From Candidatus Sungiibacteriota bacterium (GTDB taxonomy: Bacteria > Patescibacteriota > Minisyncoccia > Sungbacterales > HO2-52-23): 64,000 bases of DNA. Below the pieces are notes generated by a model that saw only the letters and a list, made by a program, of their open reading frames with translations, had not been told where the DNA came from and ran no database searches. Below, piece by piece: positions 3,212 to 63,642 of this stretch. The stretch lies in assembly GCA_016180435.1 (NCBI GenBank), contig JACPBG010000003.1, forward strand, positions 77,791 through 141,790, given 5' to 3'. The translations under genes and the position numbers were made by a program. Each line of letters starts with the position of its first letter. The stretch's first letter is position 1.

Positions 3212-3645
3212 TTTGTCGGGGCGGTTTTCGTCCCGACTTTAAAAAAGACGCTCAGCGGAATAATCCTTAAATTTTTAAACCCTCGCTTCGCTAAGCGTAC
3301 GGGCCGCAACAAATTTTAGAATATTACATACTTCGTATTATCAGCGGCCCTCCCGATTCTTTTTAAAAGTCGGGACTCAACCGCGCATTCATGATGGGTG
3401 AGTATGGGGTTTGCTCATTGTATACGCTTTACTCCGCACCAAATTTTGACTGCCGTTTTAGTTTCAATCAAAGCAAGATGAACATCCATTCATGATATGA
3501 AATATTTACCGGTGGTTAAGCTTTAAGTACAGAAACTGTCAAAATTTTAGTGACGGGGCTTGCGGCGTTTTTTGTTTGTTTGACTTTTAGGGCCGTGACT
3601 ATATACTTAAAATAGTTTTTTTATTTTTCAAACAGAGGTGTTTTT

Positions 3646-4206
3646 ATGAATAGGAAAGTTCTTGGAATGCTTTGCGCTGTAATGGTTTTGGCCTTTGCAC
3701 CGTTGGCATACAGCCAGAATGTAGTGGAGATGAAGGGCGAGCAAGATTTCATGACCTGGGTAAGCGGTTTAAAGCTTGAGGCCGGGGGAGATGTGTATAA
3801 CCCAGCACTTAAAGAAACTAAACTAATTTATCCTGTTAAAATGAAAGTTATTATCGTACCCCAATTGATACGTGCCTCATTCAGTACCCAGGTATCATTT
3901 CAGAGTCATTCGGAACGATATACAGTAATTCTTACTGGTTTCGGCATGAACATCCCTTTTGAGGGGTCAGAACTAAGGGGACAAATAAACCCGCTTTTTT
4001 TCTTAGAGCTTGAAACATCACTTTTGAAATCCGAACATTTTGACTCATTACTTGAATCAAGTCGGAAGTTTATACCCATAGAAATTCAAGGGTATGTGGG
4101 TTTACAAGATCAGTTGAAGTTGGAAAAAAGCAAGGACTATCCGGGGAGTTTTGAGATACGAGTAAAGCTTCGTCCTACATTAATAAACGGCAAACCGTTG
4201 CCGTAA
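3646..4206 (+). CDS. Hypothetical secreted protein
   Basis: N-terminal signal peptide MNRKVLGMLCAVMVLAFAPLAYSQ; GAGGTG 8 nt upstream. Confidence 0.5.
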   Translation: MNRKVLGMLCAVMVLAFAPLAYSQNVVEMKGEQDFMTWVSGLKLEAGGDVYNPALKETKLIYPVKMKVIIVPQLIRASFSTQVSFQSHSERYTVILTGFGMNIPFEGSELRGQINPLFFLELETSLLKSEHFDSLLESSRKFIPIEIQGYVGLQDQLKLEKSKDYPGSFEIRVKLRPTLINGKPLP

Positions 4207-19906: not shown

Positions 19907-19985
19907 ATCAACGAATAACGAATCTTATTCGAATTTACGAATAAACAAGTTCGTATATTCGTAAGCCATTCGTTATTCGCTGATG
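19907..19985. repeat. Family A' ('cgaataacgaat' subfamily) element
   Basis: atcaacgaataacgaatcttattcgaatttacgaataaacaagttcgtatattcgtaagccattcgttattcgctgatg; it includes the pepA stop TAA. Confidence 0.7.
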
Positions 19986-21852: not shown

Positions 21853-22383
21853 GTCTTTACGAAATACGAATAGTTACGAATTTACGAATAATGTGCTATT
21901 TTATGTTTACTATACGTTTGAAATGGACATTTCGTGGCGCAAAATACGCAAGTATGCCCAATTTTAGTCCGCCCACCACGAGATATTGATATACTTGCTC
22001 GATGTGATTTTTCACGAATCTATCACCTTTTTTGATCTCTAATATTATCTTATCTTCAATTAGAAAATCCAGGAAGTTACTGCCGATTCGTTCATTCTGA
22101 TACTTGATGGGAAAATACGCTTGTTCTCGAAATTTTAATCCCGCATTTTTTAATGCAATCGCTACTGCGCGTTGATATACTTTTTCGCTGTTGCCAAATC
22201 CCAATTTATTGTATACGTCAAACAATATGCCTATTATTTGATAACTTAACTCCGGGTATACGAGATCTTCTCGTTTAAGCATGTGTCCCGCGTCCATTTT
22301 ATGAGATTATCATGGTTCGGAGATTTTTACAATAGTTAAGCGAGGATTCGTACATTCGTATTTAATTCGTATTTCGTAAAGAA
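21853..22383 (-). mobile_element. Putative autonomous family A element: TIR + GxxExxY/PD-(D/E)xK nuclease gene + TIR
   Basis: Left TIR tttacgaaatacgaatagttacgaatttacgaataat; right TIR (reverse complement) ctttacgaaatacgaattaaatacgaatgtacgaat; 133-aa nuclease ORF 21896..22297 in between. Confidence 0.6.
21896..22297 (-). CDS. GxxExxY-type PD-(D/E)xK nuclease-like protein
   Basis: GNSEKVY (G-x-x-E-x-x-Y) and ...FLDFLIEDKIILEIKKGD (D ... E-x-K). Paralog of 26509..26907. Confidence 0.7.
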   Translation of the reverse strand: MDAGHMLKREDLVYPELSYQIIGILFDVYNKLGFGNSEKVYQRAVAIALKNAGLKFREQAYFPIKYQNERIGSNFLDFLIEDKIILEIKKGDRFVKNHIEQVYQYLVVGGLKLGILAYFAPRNVHFKRIVNIK

Positions 22384-25911: not shown

Positions 25912-25994
25912 TTTTACGAAATACTAATCATTACGAATATACGGATTATTTGAAGACGTATTCGTAAATTCGTACTCATTCGTATTTCGTAAAG
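25912..25994. repeat. Family A element
   Basis: ttttacgaaatactaatcattacgaatatacgg...attcgtaaattcgtactcattcgtatttcgtaaag, then atc + ATG of rpsG. Confidence 0.8.
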
Positions 25995-25997
25995 ATC

Positions 25998-26465
25998 ATG
26001 CGTAGAAAAAGGAAATTCACCAGAGAAATAATTCCGGATGCAAAATACAGCAATGTCGCGATTGCCAAATTTATCAACTATGTAATGCGCAAAGGGAAAA
26101 AGTCCACGGCGCAAAAAGTGGTGTATCGCGCCTTTGATGTGATTGAGAAAAAACATCAGCAGGATCCGCTGGCGGTTTTTGATCTGGCTATGAAAAATGC
26201 ATCTCCTTTGATGGAAGTGCGGCCGCGCCGGATTGGCGGAGCTACATATCAGGTGCCGCGTGAAGTCCGGCCCGGGCGTAAAATGGCCCTTACCTATCGC
26301 TGGATTATCGCGGCGGCGCGTTCCAAGAAAGGCAAACCCATGCATGTAAAATTGGCGGAGGAATTGATCGCGGCTTCCAAAAACGAGGGGATGGCGATTA
26401 AAAAGCGGATGGATATGCATAGGATGGCCGAGGCCAATAAAGCGTTTGCGCATTTCGCCTGGTAA
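25998..26465 (+). CDS. rpsG: 30S ribosomal protein S7
   Basis: MRRKRKFTREIIPDAKY...KKSTAQKVVYRAFD... Confidence 0.9.
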   Translation: MRRKRKFTREIIPDAKYSNVAIAKFINYVMRKGKKSTAQKVVYRAFDVIEKKHQQDPLAVFDLAMKNASPLMEVRPRRIGGATYQVPREVRPGRKMALTYRWIIAAARSKKGKPMHVKLAEELIAASKNEGMAIKKRMDMHRMAEANKAFAHFAW

Positions 26466-26938
26466 AATTACTACGAAGGTACGAATTTTTACGAACGTAC
26501 GAATAATTATGCGGGAAATAAAAAAGAAAGATTTATTATATCCTGATTTAAGCTATCAAGTGGTTGGTATTTTATTTGAAGTATTTAATGAACTCGGTTA
26601 TCAGTATCAGGAAAAATATTACCAAAGAGCGATCAGCAAAAGTTTGCATCTGGTAGGCATTCCTTTTCAGGAACAAATTATTTTTCCAATAGAATTTAAG
26701 GGTCAGAAGATTGGCCGGTATATCTTTGATTTTTTAGTTGATAATAAAATTGTTTTAGAAATAAAACGTGGTGACACTTTTTCACCTCAAGATATCCGAC
26801 AAACGATCGCCTACTTAAAAAGATCAAATTTACGACTAGGAATCCTTGCTCGTTTTTCAAGCAAGGGTCTTAAGTTCAAAAGAATAGTAAATATAATTGA
26901 TTCGTAATTTTCGTATTTATTCGTAACTTCGTAGTAAA
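26466..26938 (+). mobile_element. Putative autonomous family A-type element (TIR-nuclease-TIR) inserted between rpsG and fusA
   Basis: Left attactacgaaggtacgaatttttacgaacgtacgaataatt; right (reverse complement) tttactacgaagttacgaataaatacgaaaattacgaatc. The nuclease ORF stop lies inside the right TIR; the fusA ATG follows immediately. Confidence 0.6.
26509..26907 (+). CDS. GxxExxY-type PD-(D/E)xK nuclease-like protein
   Basis: YQYQEKYYQRA (GxxExxY region) and IFDFLVDNKIVLEIKRGD (D ... E-x-K). Paralog of 21896..22297. Confidence 0.7.
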   Translation: MREIKKKDLLYPDLSYQVVGILFEVFNELGYQYQEKYYQRAISKSLHLVGIPFQEQIIFPIEFKGQKIGRYIFDFLVDNKIVLEIKRGDTFSPQDIRQTIAYLKRSNLRLGILARFSSKGLKFKRIVNIIDS

Positions 26939-29071
26939 ATGCCAAGAGAATATCCTTTAGAGAGTACCAGAGATATCGGCATTATTGCCCATATTGATGC
27001 CGGAAAAACGACCGTAACCGAGCGGGTGCTTTTTTATACCGGCGTATCGCATAAAATCGGCGAGGTGCATGAGGGCGATACGGTGATGGATTGGATGGAG
27101 CAAGAGCGCGAAAGGGGAATTACTATTACGGCGGCCGCAACGAATGTGTTTTGGGTGCCGACGCATGTCGGAGAACTTAGAACTGAGAACTTAGAACTTA
27201 GAAAAAAGAACGAATACAGAATAAATATCATAGATACTCCGGGACATATTGATTTTACCGTGGAGGTTCAGCGCTCACTTCGGGTATTGGATGGCGCGGT
27301 GGTGGTTTTTGACGGAGTGGCCGGAGTTGAGCCGCAATCCGAAACCGTCTGGCGCCAAGCCGATAAATTTAAAGTTCCGCGCATGTGTTTTATAAATAAG
27401 CTTGACCGCATGGGCGCGTCATTTGAGCGCTCGCTCAATTCCATTTATGAGCGACTAACCCCGAATGCGGTTTCGGTGGCAATACCCATAGGACACGAAC
27501 AGGAACACGAAGGCGTGATTGACCTTATGCGCATGAAGTCCGTGAAGTTTCTGGGAGATAAAGGAGAAAAACTTGAATTTGTTGAGATACCCGAGAATTT
27601 GAAATCCTATGCCGAGGAATGGCGCCATAAAATGGTTGAAAAAATTTCGGAAACGGATGACGCGCTTACGGATAAATATCTGGAAGGCAAAGAGATGACT
27701 GTCGAGGAACTGCGTGGCGCTTTACGCCGCGCGACCATTGGATATCGGCTGGTTCCGGTATTTTGCGGATCGGCGCTTAAAAATAAAGGCGTGCAGTTGA
27801 TGCTGGACGGTGTGGTTGATTATCTGCCCTCTCCTTTGGATATGCCGCCGGTAAAAGGAACTCATCCCAAAACCGGTGCGGAAGAAATTCGCGAAGCGAA
27901 AGATGATGCGCCATTTGCCGCGCTTGCTTTTAAATTGCAAACCGATCCTTATGTGGGACAACTTACATATTTTAGGGTTTATTCGGGCATGCTTAAAGCC
28001 GGATCTTATGTTTTAAATTCGGTAAATGGAGATCAGGAGAGGGTGGGGCGGATTTTGCGCATGCATGCCAATACCCGCGAGGAACTGAAAGAAATCGGCG
28101 CCGGAAATATCGGTGCGATTGTCGGTCTTAAAAATACCCGTACCGGAGATACGCTTTGCGATCCGGAGCATCCGGTTGTGCTTGAAAAAATCGTATTTCC
28201 CGAGCCGGTGGTATCTTTGAAAATTGAGCCCAAGACCAAGGCTGACCAGGAAAAAATGGGACTGGCCCTGCGGCGTCTGGGCGAGGAGGACCCGACATTT
28301 CGCATTAAAGGCGACATTGAGACCGGTGATACCATTATTTCGGGTATGGGTGAACTTCATTTGGAAATTATTGTGGATCGCATGAAGCGCGAATTTTCCG
28401 TGGAGGCCAATGTGGGCCGGCCGCAGGTGGCTTATAAAGAAACCATTAAAAAAACCGCGGAAGCGGAAGGAAAATATATTCGTCAATCAGGCGGACGCGG
28501 ACAGTACGGACATGCGTGGCTTCGGGTTGAGCCGCGCGAGCGCGGAAAGGGATTTGAATTTCTTGACGAGATCAAAGGCGGTATAATTCCGCAAGAATAC
28601 ATTCCGGCGATTGAAAAAGGGATTAAGGAGGCCATGGAAAAAGGTGTTTTGGCGGGGTACCCACTGGTTGATATGGCGGTCGCGGTTTATGACGGATCAT
28701 ATCATGAAGTGGATTCGTCCGAGGCCGCATTCAAAATCGCGGGTTCCATGGCTTTGCAGGAGTGCGTTAAGCGCGCGGGACTTGTGCTGCTTGAGCCGAT
28801 TATGAAAGTGGAGGTTGTGACTCCGGAGCAGTTTCTGGGCGAGGTTACCGGGGATTTGAATTCCAAGCGTGCGCGGATTGAAGAAATGTCCGAGCGCGGC
28901 CTGGGAATTAAGGTGATTGACTGCAAAGTTCCGCTTTCGGAAATGTTCGGATATGTTACGACTCTTCGTTCCTTGACGCAAGGCAGAGCCAGTTTTACTA
29001 TGGAATTTGATCACTACGAGGAAGTCCCGAATAATATTGCGCAGCTTATAATTGAAGGGAAGCGGCAGTGA
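26939..29071 (+). CDS. fusA: Elongation factor G
   Basis: [23 protein letters not shown] and all five EF-G domains. Contains a family F-encoded insertion ([15 protein letters not shown]) between G2 and G3. Confidence 0.95.
27172..27212. repeat. Family F heptad-repeat half-element, in-frame inside fusA
   Basis: gagaacttagaactgagaacttagaacttagaaaaaagaac. Confidence 0.7.
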
Positions 29072-34402: not shown

Positions 34403-34543
34403 TACCCCGTTAGAACGCCGCCGACTCCTGCTCGCCTCGCTAAAGCTACGGCGAAGCGGGTCGGTGGTAACGAACGATAGAGATAGCCAATGGGAGTGTA
34501 ATGCTCCCATTGGCGGATCGTGAAGCGCCCGTTCTAACGGGGT
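34403..34543. repeat. Family G element with GC-rich interior
   Basis: tttaccccgttagaacgccgccgactcctgctcgcc...gcgcccgttctaacggggt. Confidence 0.7.
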
Positions 34544-34624
34544 TTACGAAATACTAATTGTTACGAATATACGAATCCAAATCGGTTTTATTAGTAAATT
34601 CGTACTGATTCGTATTTCGTAAAG
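34543..34624. repeat. Family A element
   Basis: tttacgaaatactaattgttacgaatatacgaatcc...attagtaaattcgtactgattcgtatttcgtaaag, then ttt + ATG of rplC. Confidence 0.8.
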
Positions 34625-35376: not shown

Positions 35377-36015
35377 ATGAAAATCAAAGTTTACAACCAA
35401 GAAGGAAAAGAAGCAGGAACTGCGGATTTGCCGGACGGTGTGTTTGGGTTGAAGTGGAACGCGGATTTGGTGCATCAGGTGGTAACTGGCCAGGCCGCGA
35501 ATTTGCGTAGAGGCACGGCGCATGCTAAAGGCAGAAGTGAAGTTCGCGGAGGCGGGAGAAAACCCTGGCGGCAAAAAGGCACCGGTCGCGCGCGCCATGG
35601 CTCTATCCGTTCTCCCATTTGGATCGGAGGAGGGGTTACGCATGGCCCCTTGAAAGAAAAAAGTTATCATAAAAAAATCAACAAAAAGATGGCAAAAAAA
35701 GCCCTTTTTACGGCACTTTCCGCCAAAGCGCGGGACAATGAAATTGTTATTTTGGAGGACTTGAAATTCTCGGAAGCTAAAACCAGGTATGCCGCAGAAA
35801 TTTTCAGGAATTTATCGCAAGTTGACGCGCTCAAAGACATTGTAAAAGCCAAAACTCTGCTTGCGTTTCCGGAAAAAAGCCATGATTTAAAGCGCGCATT
35901 TCGTAATTTGCCGCGAGTCGGCATGGACGAGGCCAGGAATTTGAATGCGCATGAAGTATTGCAGTACCGTTATATTCTTATGTCCAAAGCTGTGTTAGGA
36001 ATATTTAAGCAGTGA
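35377..36015 (+). CDS. rplD: 50S ribosomal protein L4
   Basis: GGGRKPWRQKGTGRARHGSIRSPIWIGGGV. Stop TGA is contributed by the family B element. Confidence 0.9.
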   Translation: MKIKVYNQEGKEAGTADLPDGVFGLKWNADLVHQVVTGQAANLRRGTAHAKGRSEVRGGGRKPWRQKGTGRARHGSIRSPIWIGGGVTHGPLKEKSYHKKINKKMAKKALFTALSAKARDNEIVILEDLKFSEAKTRYAAEIFRNLSQVDALKDIVKAKTLLAFPEKSHDLKRAFRNLPRVGMDEARNLNAHEVLQYRYILMSKAVLGIFKQ

Positions 36016-38641: not shown

Positions 38642-38725
<84 letters not shown>

Positions 38726-39463
38726 GTGACTCATCGAGTTCATCCATACATATTTCGGATTGGGCATACGACGAATTGGAAGTCGCGTTGGTTTAGGGCG
38801 CATAAATTTTCTGAATATTTGCGTGAAGATGCCATATTGCGCGAGTTGCTGGAGAAAAAATTGCGCAAGAATCATATTGAGGCGATTGAAATTGAACGAG
38901 CTCCCAATGTTGTGCGGATATTTGTAAGAACTGCGCGCCCCGGAATGATTATAGGACGCGGAGGAGAGGGATCCGAAAAATTAAAAAATGAGATTACCGC
39001 ATATCTTGCCAAAATACGTAAGAGATTCAATAGCCCCGTGGTTCAAAAAGAGGATCTGAAGCTTACCATTGAAGAGGTGCGCGCTCCGGAGACCCATGCC
39101 CTAATCGCAGGGCAGATGATCGCAGATGAGATTGAAAAGCGTATTCCATTTCGCCGCGTGTTAAAACAGGCCGTTGAGAGGATTTTTGGATCAAAGGGCG
39201 TTGAGGGCGTTAAAATAATGATAAAAGGGCGTCTGGACGGCAATGAAATTGCGCGCACCGAATGGCTGAAAAGAGGACGGATTCCGCTGCAAACCATTCG
39301 TGCCAACATAGATTTTGCGCATCGTACTGCCTATACCACATATGGGACGATTGGGATAAAAGTATGGATTTATAAAGGAGATATATTTGATAAGAACTTA
39401 GATCTTAGAACTAAGAACTTAGACAAGCATTTAGAACTTAGAACCAAGAACTTAGAAAATTAA
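38726..39463 (+). CDS. rpsC: 30S ribosomal protein S3 with repeat-encoded C-terminal tail
   Basis: KH and S3_C domains (IGRGGEGSEKLKNE...). The last 24 aa (DKNLDLRTKNLDKHLELRTKNLEN) are encoded by the family F element. Confidence 0.9.
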   Translation: MTHRVHPYIFRIGHTTNWKSRWFRAHKFSEYLREDAILRELLEKKLRKNHIEAIEIERAPNVVRIFVRTARPGMIIGRGGEGSEKLKNEITAYLAKIRKRFNSPVVQKEDLKLTIEEVRAPETHALIAGQMIADEIEKRIPFRRVLKQAVERIFGSKGVEGVKIMIKGRLDGNEIARTEWLKRGRIPLQTIRANIDFAHRTAYTTYGTIGIKVWIYKGDIFDKNLDLRTKNLDKHLELRTKNLEN

Positions 39464-39515
39464 ACTATTTACTAAGTTCTAAACGCTAAGTTCTGAGATC
39501 TTTTGCGAAGCAAAC
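39392..39515. repeat. Family F element overlapping the rpsC 3' end and the intergenic gap
   Basis: taagaacttagatcttagaactaagaacttagacaagcatttagaacttagaaccaagaacttagaaaattaaactatttactaagttctaaacgctaagttctgagatcttttgcgaagcaaac, then ATG of rplP. Confidence 0.8.
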
Positions 39516-40200: not shown

Positions 40201-40202
40201 TA

Positions 40203-40303
40203 TCAACGAATAACGAATCTTGCGCGAATTTACGAATAAACGAATTTATGGTGAGTAGAGTCGAACCATTCGTATATTCGTAATAAATTCGTTATTCGAT
40301 GAT
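40203..40303. repeat. Family A' element
   Basis: atcaacgaataacgaatcttgcgcgaatttacgaataaacgaattt...ccattcgtatattcgtaataaattcgttattcgatgat. Confidence 0.75.
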
Positions 40304-40317
40304 AGAGCGAAGCGATC

Positions 40318-42446: not shown

Positions 42447-42453
42447 CTGATAA

Positions 42454-42538
42454 CTTTACGAAATACGAATCATTACGAATGTACGAATACATTTTATCAG
42501 ATTATTCGTAAATTCGTATATATTAGTATTTCGTAAAG
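42454..42538. repeat. Family A element
   Basis: ctttacgaaatacgaatcattacgaatgtacgaatac...attcgtaaattcgtatatattagtatttcgtaaag. Confidence 0.8.
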
Positions 42539-42547
42539 ATAAAGATT

Positions 42548-43740: not shown

Positions 43741-43862
43741 TGCGAGATTTTAGAACTTAGAACCAAGAACTTAGACAAGCATTTAGAACTTAGAACCAAG
43801 AACTTAGAAAATTAAACTATTTACTAAGTTCTAAGATCTAAGATCTAAGTTCTCGTGCGAGA
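43741..43862. repeat. Family F palindromic element
   Basis: tgcgagattttagaacttagaaccaagaacttagacaagcatttagaacttagaaccaagaacttagaaaattaaactatttactaagttctaagatctaagatctaagttctcgtgcgagatc. Confidence 0.8.
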
Positions 43863-44239: not shown

Positions 44240-44326
44240 ATTTTACGAAATACGAATCATTACAAATATACGAATACGTTTTGGTAAGTTGATTCGTAAA
44301 TTCGTACCTATTCGTATTTCGTAAAG
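44240..44326. repeat. Family A element
   Basis: ttttacgaaatacgaatcattacaaatatacgaatacgttttggtaagttgattcgtaaattcgtacctattcgtatttcgtaaag. Confidence 0.85.
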
Positions 44327-44829: not shown

Positions 44830-44916
44830 ATTTTACGAAATACGAATCATTACAAATATACGAATACGTTTTGGTAAGTTGATTCGTAAATTCGTACCTA
44901 TTCGTATTTCGTAAAG
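44830..44916. repeat. Family A element; near-identical duplicate of 44240-44326 including the left flank ttaattgat
   Basis: Same sequence as the previous copy. Confidence 0.85.
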
Positions 44917-48051: not shown

Positions 48052-48857
48052 TTACGATTAAAACTACAGAAGAAATTGCTATATTGCGAGAAGGAGGCAG
48101 ACGGCTCGCAGAAATTTTGCAAAAGCTGGTTGAGGCGTCTTGTCCCGGCGTATCGGATTTTGAGCTTGATGTTCTGGCGGAGGAACTTATTTTAGCATGC
48201 GGAGGAAAACCGGCATTTAAGGGATACAGGATCAAGGAAACGCGCGTTGCGTTTCCCGCTTCCATTTGCGTGTCGATTAATGACGAGGTGGTGCACGGGA
48301 TCCCGCGCAAAAACCGGATCTTAAAAGATGGTGATATTGTCGGGATTGATATAGGAATGCAGTGGCCGAATCAAGAACTTAGAACTAAGAACTTAGAACT
48401 TAGAAATATAAGAGGAATGTATACGGATATGGCGGTAACTATCGGGGTGGGTAAAATTTCGGCAGAAGCCGAACGGCTGATTCAAACAACCCGATCTGCA
48501 TTAGATGTCGGTATTCGGACGGTACGTCCGGGTGCGCATGTCGGAGATATAGGATGCGCCGTGGAGGAGGTTCTAAAACGCGAAAAACTCGGGATTATAA
48601 GGGATCTTGCCGGACACGGCGTGGGGCATGATCTTCATGAAGAGCCGCTTATTCCGAATTACGGAATGCGCGGCGCCGGAGTAGAATTAAAAGAGGGCAT
48701 GGTTATTGCTATTGAACCCATGGCAACTTTGGGGGGATGGCGGATTAAGCTTGATCGAGATGAGTGGACGATCCGTACCGCTGATCGGAGTTTGGCGGCG
48801 CATTTTGAGCATACTTTAGTTGTTACAAAAAGCGGAGCGGAGATATTGACGAAATAG
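48048..48857 (+). CDS. map: Methionine aminopeptidase type I with repeat-encoded insertion
   Basis: Pita-bread fold with metal ligands (DIGMQ ... HGVGHDLHEEP ... AIEPM). Family F insert QELRTKNLELRN lies after DIG. Confidence 0.85.
   Translation: MITIKTTEEIAILREGGRRLAEILQKLVEASCPGVSDFELDVLAEELILACGGKPAFKGYRIKETRVAFPASICVSINDEVVHGIPRKNRILKDGDIVGIDIGMQWPNQELRTKNLELRNIRGMYTDMAVTIGVGKISAEAERLIQTTRSALDVGIRTVRPGAHVGDIGCAVEEVLKREKLGIIRDLAGHGVGHDLHEEPLIPNYGMRGAGVELKEGMVIAIEPMATLGGWRIKLDRDEWTIRTADRSLAAHFEHTLVVTKSGAEILTK
48373..48406. repeat. Family F heptad-repeat half-element, in-frame inside map
   Basis: caagaacttagaactaagaacttagaacttagaaat. Confidence 0.7.
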
Positions 48858-51595: not shown

Positions 51596-51680
51596 TTTAC
51601 GAAATACGAATCATTACGAATGTACGAATATGGCATGGCAAATTAATTCGTAAATTCGTATATATTCGTATTTCGTAAAG
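51596..51680. repeat. Family A element
   Basis: ttttacgaaatacgaatcattacgaatgtacgaatatggc...attaattcgtaaattcgtatatattcgtatttcgtaaag, then at + ATG of tpiA. Confidence 0.8.
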
Positions 51681-55983: not shown

Positions 55984-56107
55984 ATCCTGTACACAAATCC
56001 ACTAATGAGCACACAAATCCACAAATGGGATAAGTAGTCGTGATTCGTGGATTGGTGTATCAATTCGTGGATTGGTGTATCAATTCGTGGATTGGTGTGT
56101 TTGTTTT
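55984..56107. repeat. Family C element with triplicated right-arm iteron
   Basis: atcctgtacacaaatccactaatgagcacacaaatccacaaatggg...cgtgattcgtggattggtgtatcaattcgtggattggtgtatcaattcgtggattggtgtgtttg. Confidence 0.8.
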
Positions 56108-56108
56108 T

Positions 56109-56543
56109 ATGGAAAAAATAATTGTCTATACCGATGGCGGCGCCCGGGGAAATCCTGGTCCGGCGGCTATCGGGGTTGTTATTAAGGATTTAAATGGCCA
56201 TACTATTAAAAGTTATGGCGAAGCAATTGGGAATACGACTAATAATGAAGCGGAATACCGGGCGGTGGTTTTGGCATTGCAGAAACTTAAACTTATTTTT
56301 GGCGGAAAGAAAACAGAAAAACTATCGGTAGAGTTTCGAATGGACAGCGAACTGGTGGCGTGCCAGCTTAAGGGAGAATATAAGATTGAAGAAGAGCGCC
56401 TGTTTCCGCACTTCATAAAAATATGGAATCTAAAGATGGATTTTCGCGAAATTGTATTTAATCACATCCCCCGGGAAAAAAATAAAGAGGCAGACCGGTT
56501 AGTGAATGAGGCGCTGGATAAAGAGCAGGAAAAATTATTTTAA
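56109..56543 (+). CDS. rnhA: Ribonuclease HI
   Basis: IVYTDGGARGNPGPAAIGVV...NNEAEYRAVVLAL...NHIPREKNKEADRL. Confidence 0.8.
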   Translation: MEKIIVYTDGGARGNPGPAAIGVVIKDLNGHTIKSYGEAIGNTTNNEAEYRAVVLALQKLKLIFGGKKTEKLSVEFRMDSELVACQLKGEYKIEEERLFPHFIKIWNLKMDFREIVFNHIPREKNKEADRLVNEALDKEQEKLF

Positions 56544-56576
56544 CAAAAACCCGCGTAGGCGGATTTTTGTTATCCT

Positions 56577-56600
56577 TGATGCATCTATAAGCCGAATTCT
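56577..56600. terminator. Bidirectional hairpin terminator (rnhA on plus, rnpB on minus)
   Basis: aaaaacccgcgtaggcggatttttg. Confidence 0.6.
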
Positions 56601-56603
56601 GTT

Positions 56604-57093
56604 CCGCATTTTTTTATATTTTTGCGGAGATGATCATTTATCTAGGCCAAAGATTTCTCATTTGGCTCAAGCGGATTTTCCGCAATTGCGGATTACCTTG
56701 CACCGGATAGGAGTTTTTCACCGCGTATTGTTGCCAGTACGCGCTGTGAGCTTTTACTTTTACCTCGCCGAAGCGAAGCTTATCCCGCGCGAAGGCGGGC
56801 TCACTCTTTTCACCCTTACCTCCTCCACCATAAAAACCTTTAGAGTTTTTTTGATGACGATCGGCGGTATTGTTTCTGTGACACTTTCCCGGTCATGGCG
56901 GCCGTTAGCCGCTATCTCTAACGCTGCATAGCAGCGTAGAACTTAGAACCAAGATCTTAGAACTTAGAAAAACGACTAAGATCTAAGTTCTAATACTCTA
57001 AGTTCTGCGTTGCTATGCAACGCTGGTGTTCGGACTTTCCTCCCCCCAGTAATGTTTTGCATTAATGGGAGCGATCATCCAATGCATCAAGGT
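56604..57093 (-). ncRNA. rnpB: RNase P RNA (bacterial type), interrupted by a family F palindromic insertion
   Basis: Minus strand shows ggaggaaagtccgaacacc (P4 5' strand), gtcacagaaac, ggtaagggtgaaaagagtgagcc, ggtgcaaggtaatccgc, gcttgagccaaatgag...ggcctagataaatgatc...gcggaacagaattcggcttatagatg (E. coli M1-like 3' third). P1 pairs ccttgatgcat/atgcatcaagg. Confidence 0.75.
56935..57004. repeat. Family F palindromic element inserted inside rnpB
   Basis: tagaacttagaaccaagatcttagaacttagaaaaacgactaagatctaagttctaatactctaagttct, flanked by hairpins acgctgcatagcagcgt and gcgttgctatgcaacgc. Confidence 0.75.
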
Positions 57094-57126
57094 ACGTTTA
57101 TAATAATACTCCTAAAAAATTAAAAT

Positions 57127-57238
57127 GTCAACCCCGTTAGAGAGAAACAGGGATTCTCATTTATTTTCAAATATCTCTGTGTTTATAAAAACCTTTTGTG
57201 TGCAAATCACCGTGTTTGTTTCTTTCTAACGGGGTCAA
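57127..57238. repeat. Family G element
   Basis: gtcaaccccgttagagagaaacaggg ... gtttgtttctttctaacggggtcaa. Confidence 0.75.
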
Positions 57239-58172: not shown

Positions 58173-59513
<1,341 letters not shown>

Positions 59514-59665
59514 GCAGTGATGCCAATCCGATGCGAATTTAATGCCAATCTGGCGAATTGCGAATAATTATTCTTCGAGTGAAATCGAGAAGATACCTTA
59601 AATGTATATTCTCGACCCGCTTCGCTCTCGCTACAGCGAGGCGAGCAGGCTTGTAGATTGGCATC
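59514..59665. repeat. Family B element, long variant with rearranged right arm
   Basis: gcagtgatgccaatccgatgcgaatttaatgccaatctggcgaattgcgaat...ttcttcgagtgaaatcgagaag...gattggcatcacacc, then tATG. Confidence 0.75.
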
Positions 59666-61030: not shown

Positions 61031-61123
61031 ACGAGAACTTAGAACCAAGAACTAAGAACTTAGAAAATTAAACTACTCGCTAAGTTCTAAGATCTATATG
61101 CTAAGTTCTTTTGCGAAGCAAAC
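61031..61123. repeat. Family F palindromic element with start-proximal tail
   Basis: cgagaacttagaaccaagaactaagaacttagaaaattaaactactcgctaagttctaagatctatatgctaagttcttttgcgaagcaaac, then GTG of atpA. Confidence 0.8.
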
Positions 61124-62639: not shown

Positions 62640-63527
62640 ATGATTCGAAGAAACATTTTTGAAGAAACAGAGCGTCTTTCAGTACTTCGTATTCTTATCG
62701 AAACGTATGAGGGCATTGCCGCCATGACCATACGCCGAATTCGAAATTCAGTTCTGCAAAACCGCGAATTTTATGCCGGCCTGTCTGATCTTTTTGCCGA
62801 AATAAAATCAGCTTACGCAAAAGATCTGCGCTCCCTTATGGTCAAGCGGGGAATAAAACAGGCGTTGGCCGACGGAGCTAAAGCCAAATCTTTATCGCTG
62901 ATCCGGAGAAACGGCAAAACCGTTTATGTCCTGCTTTCGTCTAACACCGGACTTTACGGGGAAATTATCGGCAAGACATTCGCTTTATTTGTTAAGAACA
63001 TCCGCTGGAGCGATGCGGATTGCGTGATAGTCGGCAGGGTGGGCAGGATGTTATTTGAATCCGCCATGCCGCAAAAGAAATTTTCGTATTTTGATTTTCC
63101 CGACACCCATGTTTCGCGCGCCGATTTGGAGGAAATTACAAAATTTCTCCATCAGTATGAGAATGTCGTGGTATTTCACGGAGCATTTCGCAGTTTTATT
63201 GATCAGCATCCGGCATTATCGCGTGTTTCGGGGGACGAGCGTCTGTTGGGGGAAGAGGCTTCGGGGTCGGTGTCCTACATCTTTGAGCCATCGCTTGAGG
63301 ATATAATGGTTTTTTTCGAAAGTGAGATTTTTGCATCGCTTCTGGGGCAGGTTTTTTATGAGTCGCGTCTTGCTAAAGTGGCAAGCCGTTTAATGGTACT
63401 TGATCGCGCATCCACAAATGTTGATGATGCCTTGCGCCGCTCGTTTTTTAAGCAGCGTCAAGCCGGACATCAGCTTTCCAATAAAAAGCAGATAAATGCC
63501 ATGAGCGGCGTAGCTCTTTGGGGGTAA
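62640..63527 (+). CDS. atpG: F-type ATP synthase subunit gamma
   Basis: Position and size; N- and C-terminal coiled-coil helices. Confidence 0.75.
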   Translation: MIRRNIFEETERLSVLRILIETYEGIAAMTIRRIRNSVLQNREFYAGLSDLFAEIKSAYAKDLRSLMVKRGIKQALADGAKAKSLSLIRRNGKTVYVLLSSNTGLYGEIIGKTFALFVKNIRWSDADCVIVGRVGRMLFESAMPQKKFSYFDFPDTHVSRADLEEITKFLHQYENVVVFHGAFRSFIDQHPALSRVSGDERLLGEEASGSVSYIFEPSLEDIMVFFESEIFASLLGQVFYESRLAKVASRLMVLDRASTNVDDALRRSFFKQRQAGHQLSNKKQINAMSGVALWG

Positions 63528-63615
63528 CATCAGCGAATAACGAATCCTTCGCGAATTTACGAATACTGGAATTCGTAATTCGTATATTCGTACGAGATTC
63601 GTTATTCGACGATGT
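63528..63615. repeat. Family A' element
   Basis: catcagcgaataacgaatccttcgcgaatttacgaatactggaattcgtaattcgtatattcgtacgagattcgttattcgacgatg. Confidence 0.75.
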
Positions 63616-63642
63616 TTTACCGTTATTCGTTGATAAATTTAA

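Follow-up and report, generated by a model that had tools for sequence, protein, structure and literature searches.

A dispersed heptamer palindrome embedded between P5 and P7 in a class A RNase P RNA gene of Candidatus Sungbacteria

How does the gene for a ribozyme come to hold a long palindrome of a kind that is scattered through the surrounding genome, and does the ribozyme remain whole around it? The question is raised by a locus in a 64-kb stretch of DNA from a Candidatus Sungiibacteriota bacterium (contig JACPBG010000003.1; the whole stretch is called the window here), where an initial annotation had placed an RNase P RNA gene (rnpB) on the minus strand with a mobile palindrome apparently absorbed into it. 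The explanation that fits our data best, and that we consider likely, is a resident rnpB that carries a neutral expansion rod, self-contained and originating from a dispersed heptamer repeat, which we refer to as family F. Coordinates are positions within the window, and RNA features lie on the minus strand unless stated otherwise.

The assignment of an RNase P RNA gene to the minus strand was borne out by a cmscan search of Rfam. Family RF00010 (RNaseP_bact_a) matches 56572-57090 (-) at 131 bits (E = 6.8e-40; curated gathering score 100), and the alignment spans model positions 1-367 of 367. The class A model is the best match. All of the core motifs named in the initial annotation (GGAAAGUCCG, ACAGAAAC and GGUAAGGGUGAAA) were found. 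Its interval, which starts at 56604, proved 32 nt short and cuts off the conserved block CR-V with the 3’ strand of P4 (56588-56602) and the 3’ strand of P1 (56574-56587). The conserved blocks CR-I to CR-V are all present (GAGGAAAGUCCG, ACAGAAAC, GGUAAGGGUGAAA, AGAUAAAUGA, ACAGAAUUCGGCUUA), and the complementarity of P4 is kept, with AAGUCCG pairing to CGGCUU around the usual bulged U. The gene, its flanking signals and its core elements are as follows; the elements from CR-I to P1 are placed by the cmscan alignment, that of P7 and P8 by comparison with the sister gene (L005) in this alignment.

57103..57131 (-): sigma-70-type promoter, TTGACA-17-TATTAT, matching 11/12 consensus positions and ending ~13 nt upstream of the RNA 5’ end (a consensus match only)
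56572..57090 (-): rnpB, RNase P RNA class A, 519 nt, by RF00010; syntenic with the rnpB of L005/L006 and L009, between RNase H and a helix-turn-helix (HTH) membrane protein
57031..57042 (-): CR-I and P4 5’ strand, GAGGAAAGUCCG
57025..57028 (-): P5 5’ strand CACC, which pairs with GGUG inside 56701-56719
56898..56917 (-): P7 5’ strand AGAUA (56913-56917) and P8, GCGGC-UAACG-GCCGC; no P9 after P8
56872..56890 (-): P10 and P11 5’ strands with CR-II, ACAGAAAC
56808..56867 (-): P12 and CR-III, GGUAAGGGUGAAA
56701..56744 (-): P14 and the 3’ strands of P11, P10, P7 and P5
56574..56697 (-): reduced P15-P17, L15 hairpin, CR-IV, P18, CR-V with the P4 3’ strand (56588-56602), and the P1 3’ strand (56574-56587)
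56541..56572 (-): intrinsic-terminator-like hairpin of 14 bp and a T run, at the rnpB 3’ end and facing the convergent RNase H gene

Among the peripheral helices of type A, P8, P12, P13, P14 and P18 are present, P9 is deleted, and P15-P17 are represented by one small hairpin. The L15 GGU motif, which binds CCA, is absent. The sister gene is in the same state with respect to these helices and this motif, and loss of the CCA-binding motif has been reported for two-thirds of candidate phyla radiation (CPR) genomes (PMC8172020). P9 is absent from the rnpB of L005, L013 and L033 as well as from the window (56891-56897), P8 being followed directly by AUGACC and P10, and it is kept in the rnpB of L009, L016, L020, L023 and L028. 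The cmscan alignment also contains two oversized segments, a 119-nt unaligned block at the expected place of P8/P9 and a P13 loop of 49 nt, compared with 7 nt in the model.

The rnpB genes of the sister species (L005/L006) and of a further relative (L009) lie at the same syntenic place. Both keep the order RNase H - rnpB - HTH/membrane protein - ATP synthase, and the neighboring protein is 83% identical to that of the window in L005/L006 and 47% identical in L009. The L005 gene, 387 nt long and scoring 178.7 bits, is identical to that of Parcubacteria GW2011_GWA2_45_30 (L019), and we used it as a natural insert-free control for the covariance score. In a three-way alignment, the window gene differs from L005 by two clean blocks, one of ~105 nt and one of exactly 42 nt. 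The first contains the palindrome of the initial annotation, which is absent from the syntenic sister gene; the second, in P13, had been overlooked. These two clean insertions, both within hairpin loops, account for the 48-bit drop in score relative to the sister (131 vs 178.7 bits).

Outside the two blocks, the window gene and L005 differ by ~23 substitutions in ~371 aligned positions (~94% identity), and none of these falls in CR-I, CR-II or CR-V. At position 273, in CR-III, the window is nearer to the consensus than the sister. RNA positions 355/362 in P14 form a U-A pair in the window and a C-G pair in L005, one clean compensatory change, and the changes in P1 and P2 preserve pairing through G-U wobbles. 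Such a pattern points to an RNA under structural selection rather than to a decaying copy. The gene is probably functional.

Local misassembly does not explain the structure of the locus, because three contigs (L001-L003), assembled independently from other sequencing runs, match the window at 100% identity across rnpB, inserts included; an assembly artefact as the source of the inserts is ruled out on the same grounds. CPR comparators were supplied by a scan of a genome collection with the J11/12 motif GTGTCACAGAAACAATACCGC, which returned 22 loci of mixed lineages and no relative closer than the L005/L019 species. A single Joint Genome Institute (JGI) metagenome scan with a genus-specific rnpB motif gave only the sister allele, twice, and no intermediate forms.

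The larger block lies between the 5’ strand of P5 (57025-57028) and the 5’ strand of P7 (56913-56917), and is composed of the following parts.

56920..57024 (-): ‘P5.1-like’ rod of 105 nt, ~41 expected base pairs, by folding; the sister has a 13-nt hairpin here
57007..57023 (-): 5’ outer arm, GCGUUGCAUAGCAACGC; its last 4 nt, ACGC (57007-57010), are one copy of a flanking direct repeat
56938..57006 (-): heptamer palindrome core, a 69-nt family F copy (AGAACTT/AGATCTT/AGAACCA), by repeat alignment
56921..56937 (-): 3’ outer arm, ACGCUGCUAUGCAGCGU; its first 4 nt, ACGC (56934-56937), are the second copy of the direct repeat

Folded alone, 56920-57024 has a minimum free energy (MFE) of -53.8 kcal/mol, compared with -24.9 +/- 3.0 for shuffled sequences (z = -9.7), and none of 200 shuffles does as well. 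In the partition function of the full 519-nt RNA, 40.8 base pairs are expected within the insert and 0.01 between it and the remainder of the molecule, in agreement with the earlier proposal of an extended helix that does not break the core. The palindrome described at 56935-57004 is real, and its bounds have moved: the core occupies 56938-57006 and the whole self-complementary unit 56920-57024. Two small hairpins had been said to bracket it. Sequences that fold in this way do exist, as each 17-nt outer arm folds alone at ~-9 to -10 kcal/mol. The arms are, however, mutually complementary and make up the basal 14 bp of a single long rod in the MFE structure, and they are better read as the two strands of an older helix. 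They occur only in the rnpB copy.

The core of the rod belongs to a dispersed family of palindromes, as the initial annotation had held. It consists of tandem AGAACTT, AGATCTT and AGAACCA units, an AGAAAA...ACTAAG center, and then inverted units. The 16-mer AGAACTTAGATCTTAG has 42 matches at up to 3 mismatches, compared with 0.37 expected. The core aligns column for column with four intergenic family F copies, 48 of the columns being invariant, and matches 8 other loci at 91-96% identity across stretches of 25-35 nt. Period-7 heptamer arrays are found at 9 loci including rnpB. Two-armed copies occupy short intercistronic spacers, and one-armed arrays are found within conserved genes:

38644..38711 (+): family F hairpin between rplV (L22) and rpsC (S3)
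39393..39501 (+): family F hairpin between rpsC (S3) and rplP (L16); its first arm, with the array at 39393-39463, codes for the C-terminal tail of S3
43745..43853 (+): family F hairpin between rplF (L6) and rplR (L18)
61034..61102 (+): family F hairpin upstream of atpA; in L005/L007 the orthologous spacer has a hairpin from another family
27172..27211 (+): one-armed family F array, read in frame within elongation factor G (EF-G), ahead of the G3 motif
48374..48405 (+): one-armed family F array, translated in frame within methionine aminopeptidase (MetAP), QELRTKNLELRN, as part of an insertion of 15 aa compared with solved structures
12769..12799 (-): one-armed family F array, reversed, within an open-reading frame (ORF) for a metallo-beta-lactamase (MBL)-fold hydrolase (SLSSKFFVLSS)

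The arrays in EF-G, MetAP and S3 share the reading frame ELRT(K/E)NL; ELRTKNLELR appears in both EF-G and MetAP, and the family F-derived S3 tail ends in ...LELRTKNLEN*. Compared with structures in the PDB, the insertion amounts to ~10 aa in EF-G and exactly 15 aa in MetAP. The ten closest relatives of this EF-G are without the array peptide and have a loop of variable length at that spot; an array in a variable protein loop follows the same logic as a repeat in a variable hairpin of rnpB. At the atpA spacer, the sister (L005 5773-5890; L007 ~3548-3665) has a long hairpin (-53.9 kcal/mol) of the unrelated ATGCCAATCC...GCGAATTTA family. One hairpin family takes the place of another at fixed intergenic positions between relatives.

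These observations suggest a history for the rod. The lineage would have had an older P5-P7 hairpin, probably of ~32 nt (14 bp and an ACGC loop). A 69-nt family F copy would have landed in or next to the apical loop of this hairpin, producing a 105-nt coaxial rod of ~41 base pairs. The rod folds on itself and projects from the junction of the catalytic and specificity domains, with the conserved blocks and core helices left intact. Family F has also colonized other tolerant places, namely the spacers of the ribosomal-protein operon and the variable surface loops or tails of EF-G, MetAP and S3. We place the rnpB copy in or beside the apical loop of an older hairpin because the core is flanked, in the RNA sense, by a perfect ACGC...ACGC direct repeat, and because what remains after in silico deletion of the core and one ACGC is a hairpin of 14 bp whose loop is ACGC (-21.4 kcal/mol, z = -5.4). 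The ancestral hairpin is a reconstruction, not an observation.

Several points weigh against this account. The candidate target duplication is only 4 nt long (ACGC) and is weak, no consistent flanking repeats were seen at the other family F copies, and there is no transposase or integrase among the 40 larger ORFs of the window. The 13-nt hairpin that L005 carries in place of the rod, UCAGACAGUCUGA, shares no sequence with the proposed 14-bp ancestral stem. In the ribozyme itself, P9 is lost, a loss common to the sister gene, and a G-to-A change at the first position of P7, adjoining the insert, weakens P7 by one pair. Finally, the cmscan search that found no rnpB besides 56572-57090 was limited to the 64-kb window. 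The notion of an absorbed mobile palindrome therefore survives as far as an absorbed repeat is concerned; with a 4-nt repeat and no transposase, its mobility is unproven.

The lack of a transposase or of a clear target duplication would also be expected if the rod had grown in place, the native P5-P7 hairpin having expanded through replication slippage or on a hairpin template, and resembled the other copies through a recurrent slippage-prone unit. The heptamers are in tandem, and their copy number and unit variants differ between family F copies. This genome and that of the sister are, moreover, rich in short tandem arrays of several unit types, with 4-6 short-period arrays per 10 kb in the clade compared with 0 in Saprospiraceae controls. 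We disfavor slippage in situ because the order of units is shared with distant copies: the rnpB core has the unit-variant order AGAACTT-AGAACCA-AGATCTT, the AGAAAA...ACTAAG borders and the arm asymmetry in common with them, and it is 94% identical over 34 nt to the copy at 61.0 kb. Slippage would also lack a starting point in the sister rnpB, which has no AGAACTT seed, and AGAACTT arrays are absent from the sister’s syntenic contigs. Growth in place is accordingly unlikely.

The site of the insert is not arbitrary: it is a lineage-specific hairpin of variable length that was there before the repeat. In ten distinct CPR-type rnpB sequences (the window, L005/L019, L009, L013, L016, L020, L021, L023, L028 and L033), a hairpin stands right after the P5 strand CACC and before P7/P8 (GGAUA...UAAC), and its length ranges from 13 to ~105 nt. 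Five ordinary class A genes from the same scan (L012, L015, L024, L025 and L029) have an unpaired J5/7 and no hairpin. The position between P5 and P7 is where P5.1 sits in the RNase P RNAs of type B. The window RNA resembles type B in this hairpin and differs from it in having P13, P14 and P18 and in lacking P10.1 and P15.1, and bact_a is the best family by clan competition. Because the rest of the RNA is of type A, the P15.1 with which a P5.1 would dock is absent, and the length of the helix is unconstrained, at 13-105 nt. On this comparison, the repeat appears to have lengthened an existing peripheral helix rather than opened a new one, and the core would be undisturbed because the extended helix was already free to vary in length.

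For the P5-P7 extensions of the other CPR lineages, we found no origin from a local repeat in the 4-13 kb available for each, except in L023. In this Saccharibacteria-labeled metagenome-assembled genome (MAG), the P5-P7 hairpin (554-593) and a second site in rnpB (881-905) share a 25-nt palindrome, GATATTTCGAAATATCGATATATCG, at 96% identity, which suggests duplication of a repeat within another CPR RNase P RNA.

The smaller block has a different character.

56758..56799 (-): 42-nt extension within the loop of P13, made of two hairpins; not present in L005, L009 or 11 further rnpB genes

It folds as two small hairpins atop P13 and has no further copy in the window. A homologous module occurs in a distant Patescibacteria MAG (L021, ~1815-1860, -), with compensatory changes relative to the window in P13 itself (A-U to G-C) and in both hairpins of the module (CCCGC/GCGGG vs CCCAC/GUGGG). 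The homology and the compensatory changes indicate a structured sub-domain and not a repeat of the family F type; we considered another dispersed repeat and ruled it out, given the lack of copies in the window and the module held in common with L021. The patchy distribution of the module would imply repeated loss or lateral transfer.

Whether the rod stays in the mature RNA bears on how the ribozyme works. RNase III could cut it out, as it does the intervening sequences (IVS) of 23S rRNA, leaving a two-piece RNase P RNA held together by P5, P7 and tertiary contacts. The ~41 bp form a nearly continuous duplex, and a long near-continuous duplex is the kind of substrate that RNase III cleaves; a break in this peripheral hairpin would spare all core helices, and the contig of one relative carries a gene of the 23S_rRNA_IVP family, a hint of IVS-type biology in the clade. 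We found no RNase III match in the 64-kb window, an uninformative result for a small sample searched with an approximate E. coli query and a signature regular expression. The cyanobacterial RNase P RNAs that contain short tandemly repeated repetitive (STRR) elements are, reportedly, not known to be fragmented. Excision is compatible with a repeat-derived rod in a resident gene; as the actual fate of this RNA it seems to us improbable.

At its widest, the picture would be one of a heptamer family actively colonizing the tolerant loops of RNase P RNA, EF-G and MetAP, the S3 tail and operon spacers. Its rnpB copy would either be retained as a ~41-bp rod at the P5/P7 hinge or be cut by RNase III to give a split RNase P RNA, and the P13 module would owe its distribution to lateral exchange or repeated loss. 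Taken together, these propositions are doubtful.

A decaying pseudogene, with a working RNase P (RNA or protein-only) encoded elsewhere, might be suspected from an Rfam score 48 bits below that of the sister and from the missing P9 and L15 GGU motif, and the search for another rnpB was limited to the 64-kb window. We judge it very improbable, as the score drop is explained by two clean insertions in hairpin loops, the loss of P9 is common to the sister, the loss of the CCA-binding motif is common to two-thirds of CPR genomes (PMC8172020), and the gene keeps its orthologous syntenic position, an intact promoter (by consensus match) and terminator, intact conserved blocks (unsubstituted in CR-I, CR-II and CR-V, and nearer to the consensus at CR-III 273) and the compensatory U-A to C-G change in P14.

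Equally remote is a gain of function, in which the rod would bind a protein that recognizes all family F hairpins, or would pair with the (AGAACUU)n arrays in the EF-G, MetAP and S3 mRNAs and so link RNase P to their processing: family F does lie between ribosomal-protein cistrons and inside the EF-G and MetAP mRNAs, and an RNase P RNA with both arms is therefore complementary to the one-armed mRNA copies, but a conserved function is argued against because the insert is absent from a sister rnpB that is otherwise ~94% identical and because, in relatives, unrelated families take the place of the orthologous spacer hairpins. The rod is most likely a neutral, tolerated expansion segment.

Family F is one of several families of tandem-unit hairpins in the window, which contains at least 25 long hairpins. 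The commonest palindrome family is ~85 nt long, is built of ACGAAT-type units (TTTACGAAATACGAATCATTACGAAT...) and has at least 10 copies, mostly in spacers (2918-2983, 19907-19984, 25913-25993, 34543-34623, 40201-40304, 42451-42541, 44242-44325, 44832-44915, 51596-51679 and 63526-63616). Further families are represented by ATCTGTGA at 35.3 and 37.6 kb and by ATTAGAATA at 6.5 and 55.0 kb. A 56-nt stretch, GCAGTGATGCCAATCCGATGCGAATTTAATGCCAATCTGGCGAATTGCGAATA, at 59511-59566 of the window is 100% identical to L005 5771-5826, in non-orthologous spacers of genomes that are otherwise ~80% identical, and 22-nt units related to it recur at 36015, 40586, 41124, 42149 and 59520. Two genes for GxxExxY-type PD-(D/E)XK nucleases (TIGR04256/PF13366) lie at 21896-22297 (-) and 26446-26907 (+). 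One of them is inserted into the str operon between rpsL (S12) and fusA (EF-G), and tandem-repeat hairpins flank both; these nuclease genes have no demonstrated link to the repeats.

Beside rnpB, a perfect tandem repeat of 20 nt x 2.8 (ATTCGTGGATTGGTGTATCA) at 56043-56098 lies a short way upstream of where the RNase H gene probably starts (~56109) and inflates its ORF to 167 aa, compared with 146 aa in the sister species. A 141-aa ORF at 56506-56931 (+), wholly antisense to rnpB, is almost certainly spurious; an annotation could mistake it for a gene.

The nearest precedent comes from heterocystous cyanobacteria, in which STRR sequences occur within rnpB, to judge by the title of the report (Vioque, 1997, as cited in PMC2858038). 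There, as here, tandem 7-nt repeats that are otherwise scattered through the genome sit inside rnpB, where they extend one of the peripheral helices of a class A RNA. The two cases differ in host phylum (here Candidatus Sungbacteria) and in the helix affected (here that between P5 and P7), and family F forms a two-armed palindrome and is also translated in essential proteins. The cyanobacterial STRR are said to be located in P12, and their unit sequences presumably differ from AGAACTT.

RNase P RNAs of the CPR have been described as class A molecules with large helix extensions, low Rfam scores and missing helices, often without a CCA-binding motif (Lui et al., 2021, PMC8172020). The window gene is from the same superphylum and shares the helix extensions, the missing helices and the lack of that motif. 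The earlier study describes no P5-P7 helix (‘P5.1’ occurs 0 times) and ties no extension to a dispersed repeat. In R. felis, 728 Rickettsia palindromic elements (RPEs) were counted, of which 85 are in ORFs and 3 in RNA genes (PMC1166351). Like family F, RPEs are a small palindromic family found in non-coding DNA, in frame in genes and in RNA genes of a reduced genome. Unlike family F, they are not tandem heptamers and are unrelated in sequence and host, and the in-gene protein copies described here are one-armed and not whole palindromes.

Two further comparisons are more general. As in rRNA expansion segments and the IVS excised by RNase III, an extra helix is found at the tip of a peripheral hairpin with the core undisturbed, although the RNA is a different one. 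Like repetitive extragenic palindromic (REP) sequences and bacterial interspersed mosaic elements (BIME), Correia elements and hairpins resembling miniature inverted-repeat transposable elements (MITE), the hairpins described here are short and abundant, lie in intergenic DNA at the ends of genes and vary in occupancy among close relatives. Unlike them, they have internal tandem heptamers, and we saw no distinct terminal inverted repeats, consistent target duplication, REP-associated tyrosine transposase (RAYT) or other transposase. Literature searches on palindromic elements in RNase P RNA and on palindromic repeats in Patescibacteria returned nothing relevant. New here are the phylum of the host, the family of repeats and the place it occupies in the ribozyme, and the presence of one family in an RNA gene, protein loops and operon spacers of one genome.

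Inserts of this kind lower covariance-model scores (131 vs 179 bits), and rnpB can consequently seem to be missing in checks of genome completeness. The locus links the extended helices of CPR RNase P RNAs to a concrete source, dispersed tandem-repeat hairpins, and the ~94% identical, insert-free allele of the sister provides a natural experiment on the helix load that is tolerated at the hinge between the catalytic and specificity domains. Family F is also tolerated in frame in EF-G, MetAP and S3. The invasion of essential genes by repeats, in the manner of STRR and RPEs, therefore extends to the reduced genomes of the CPR.

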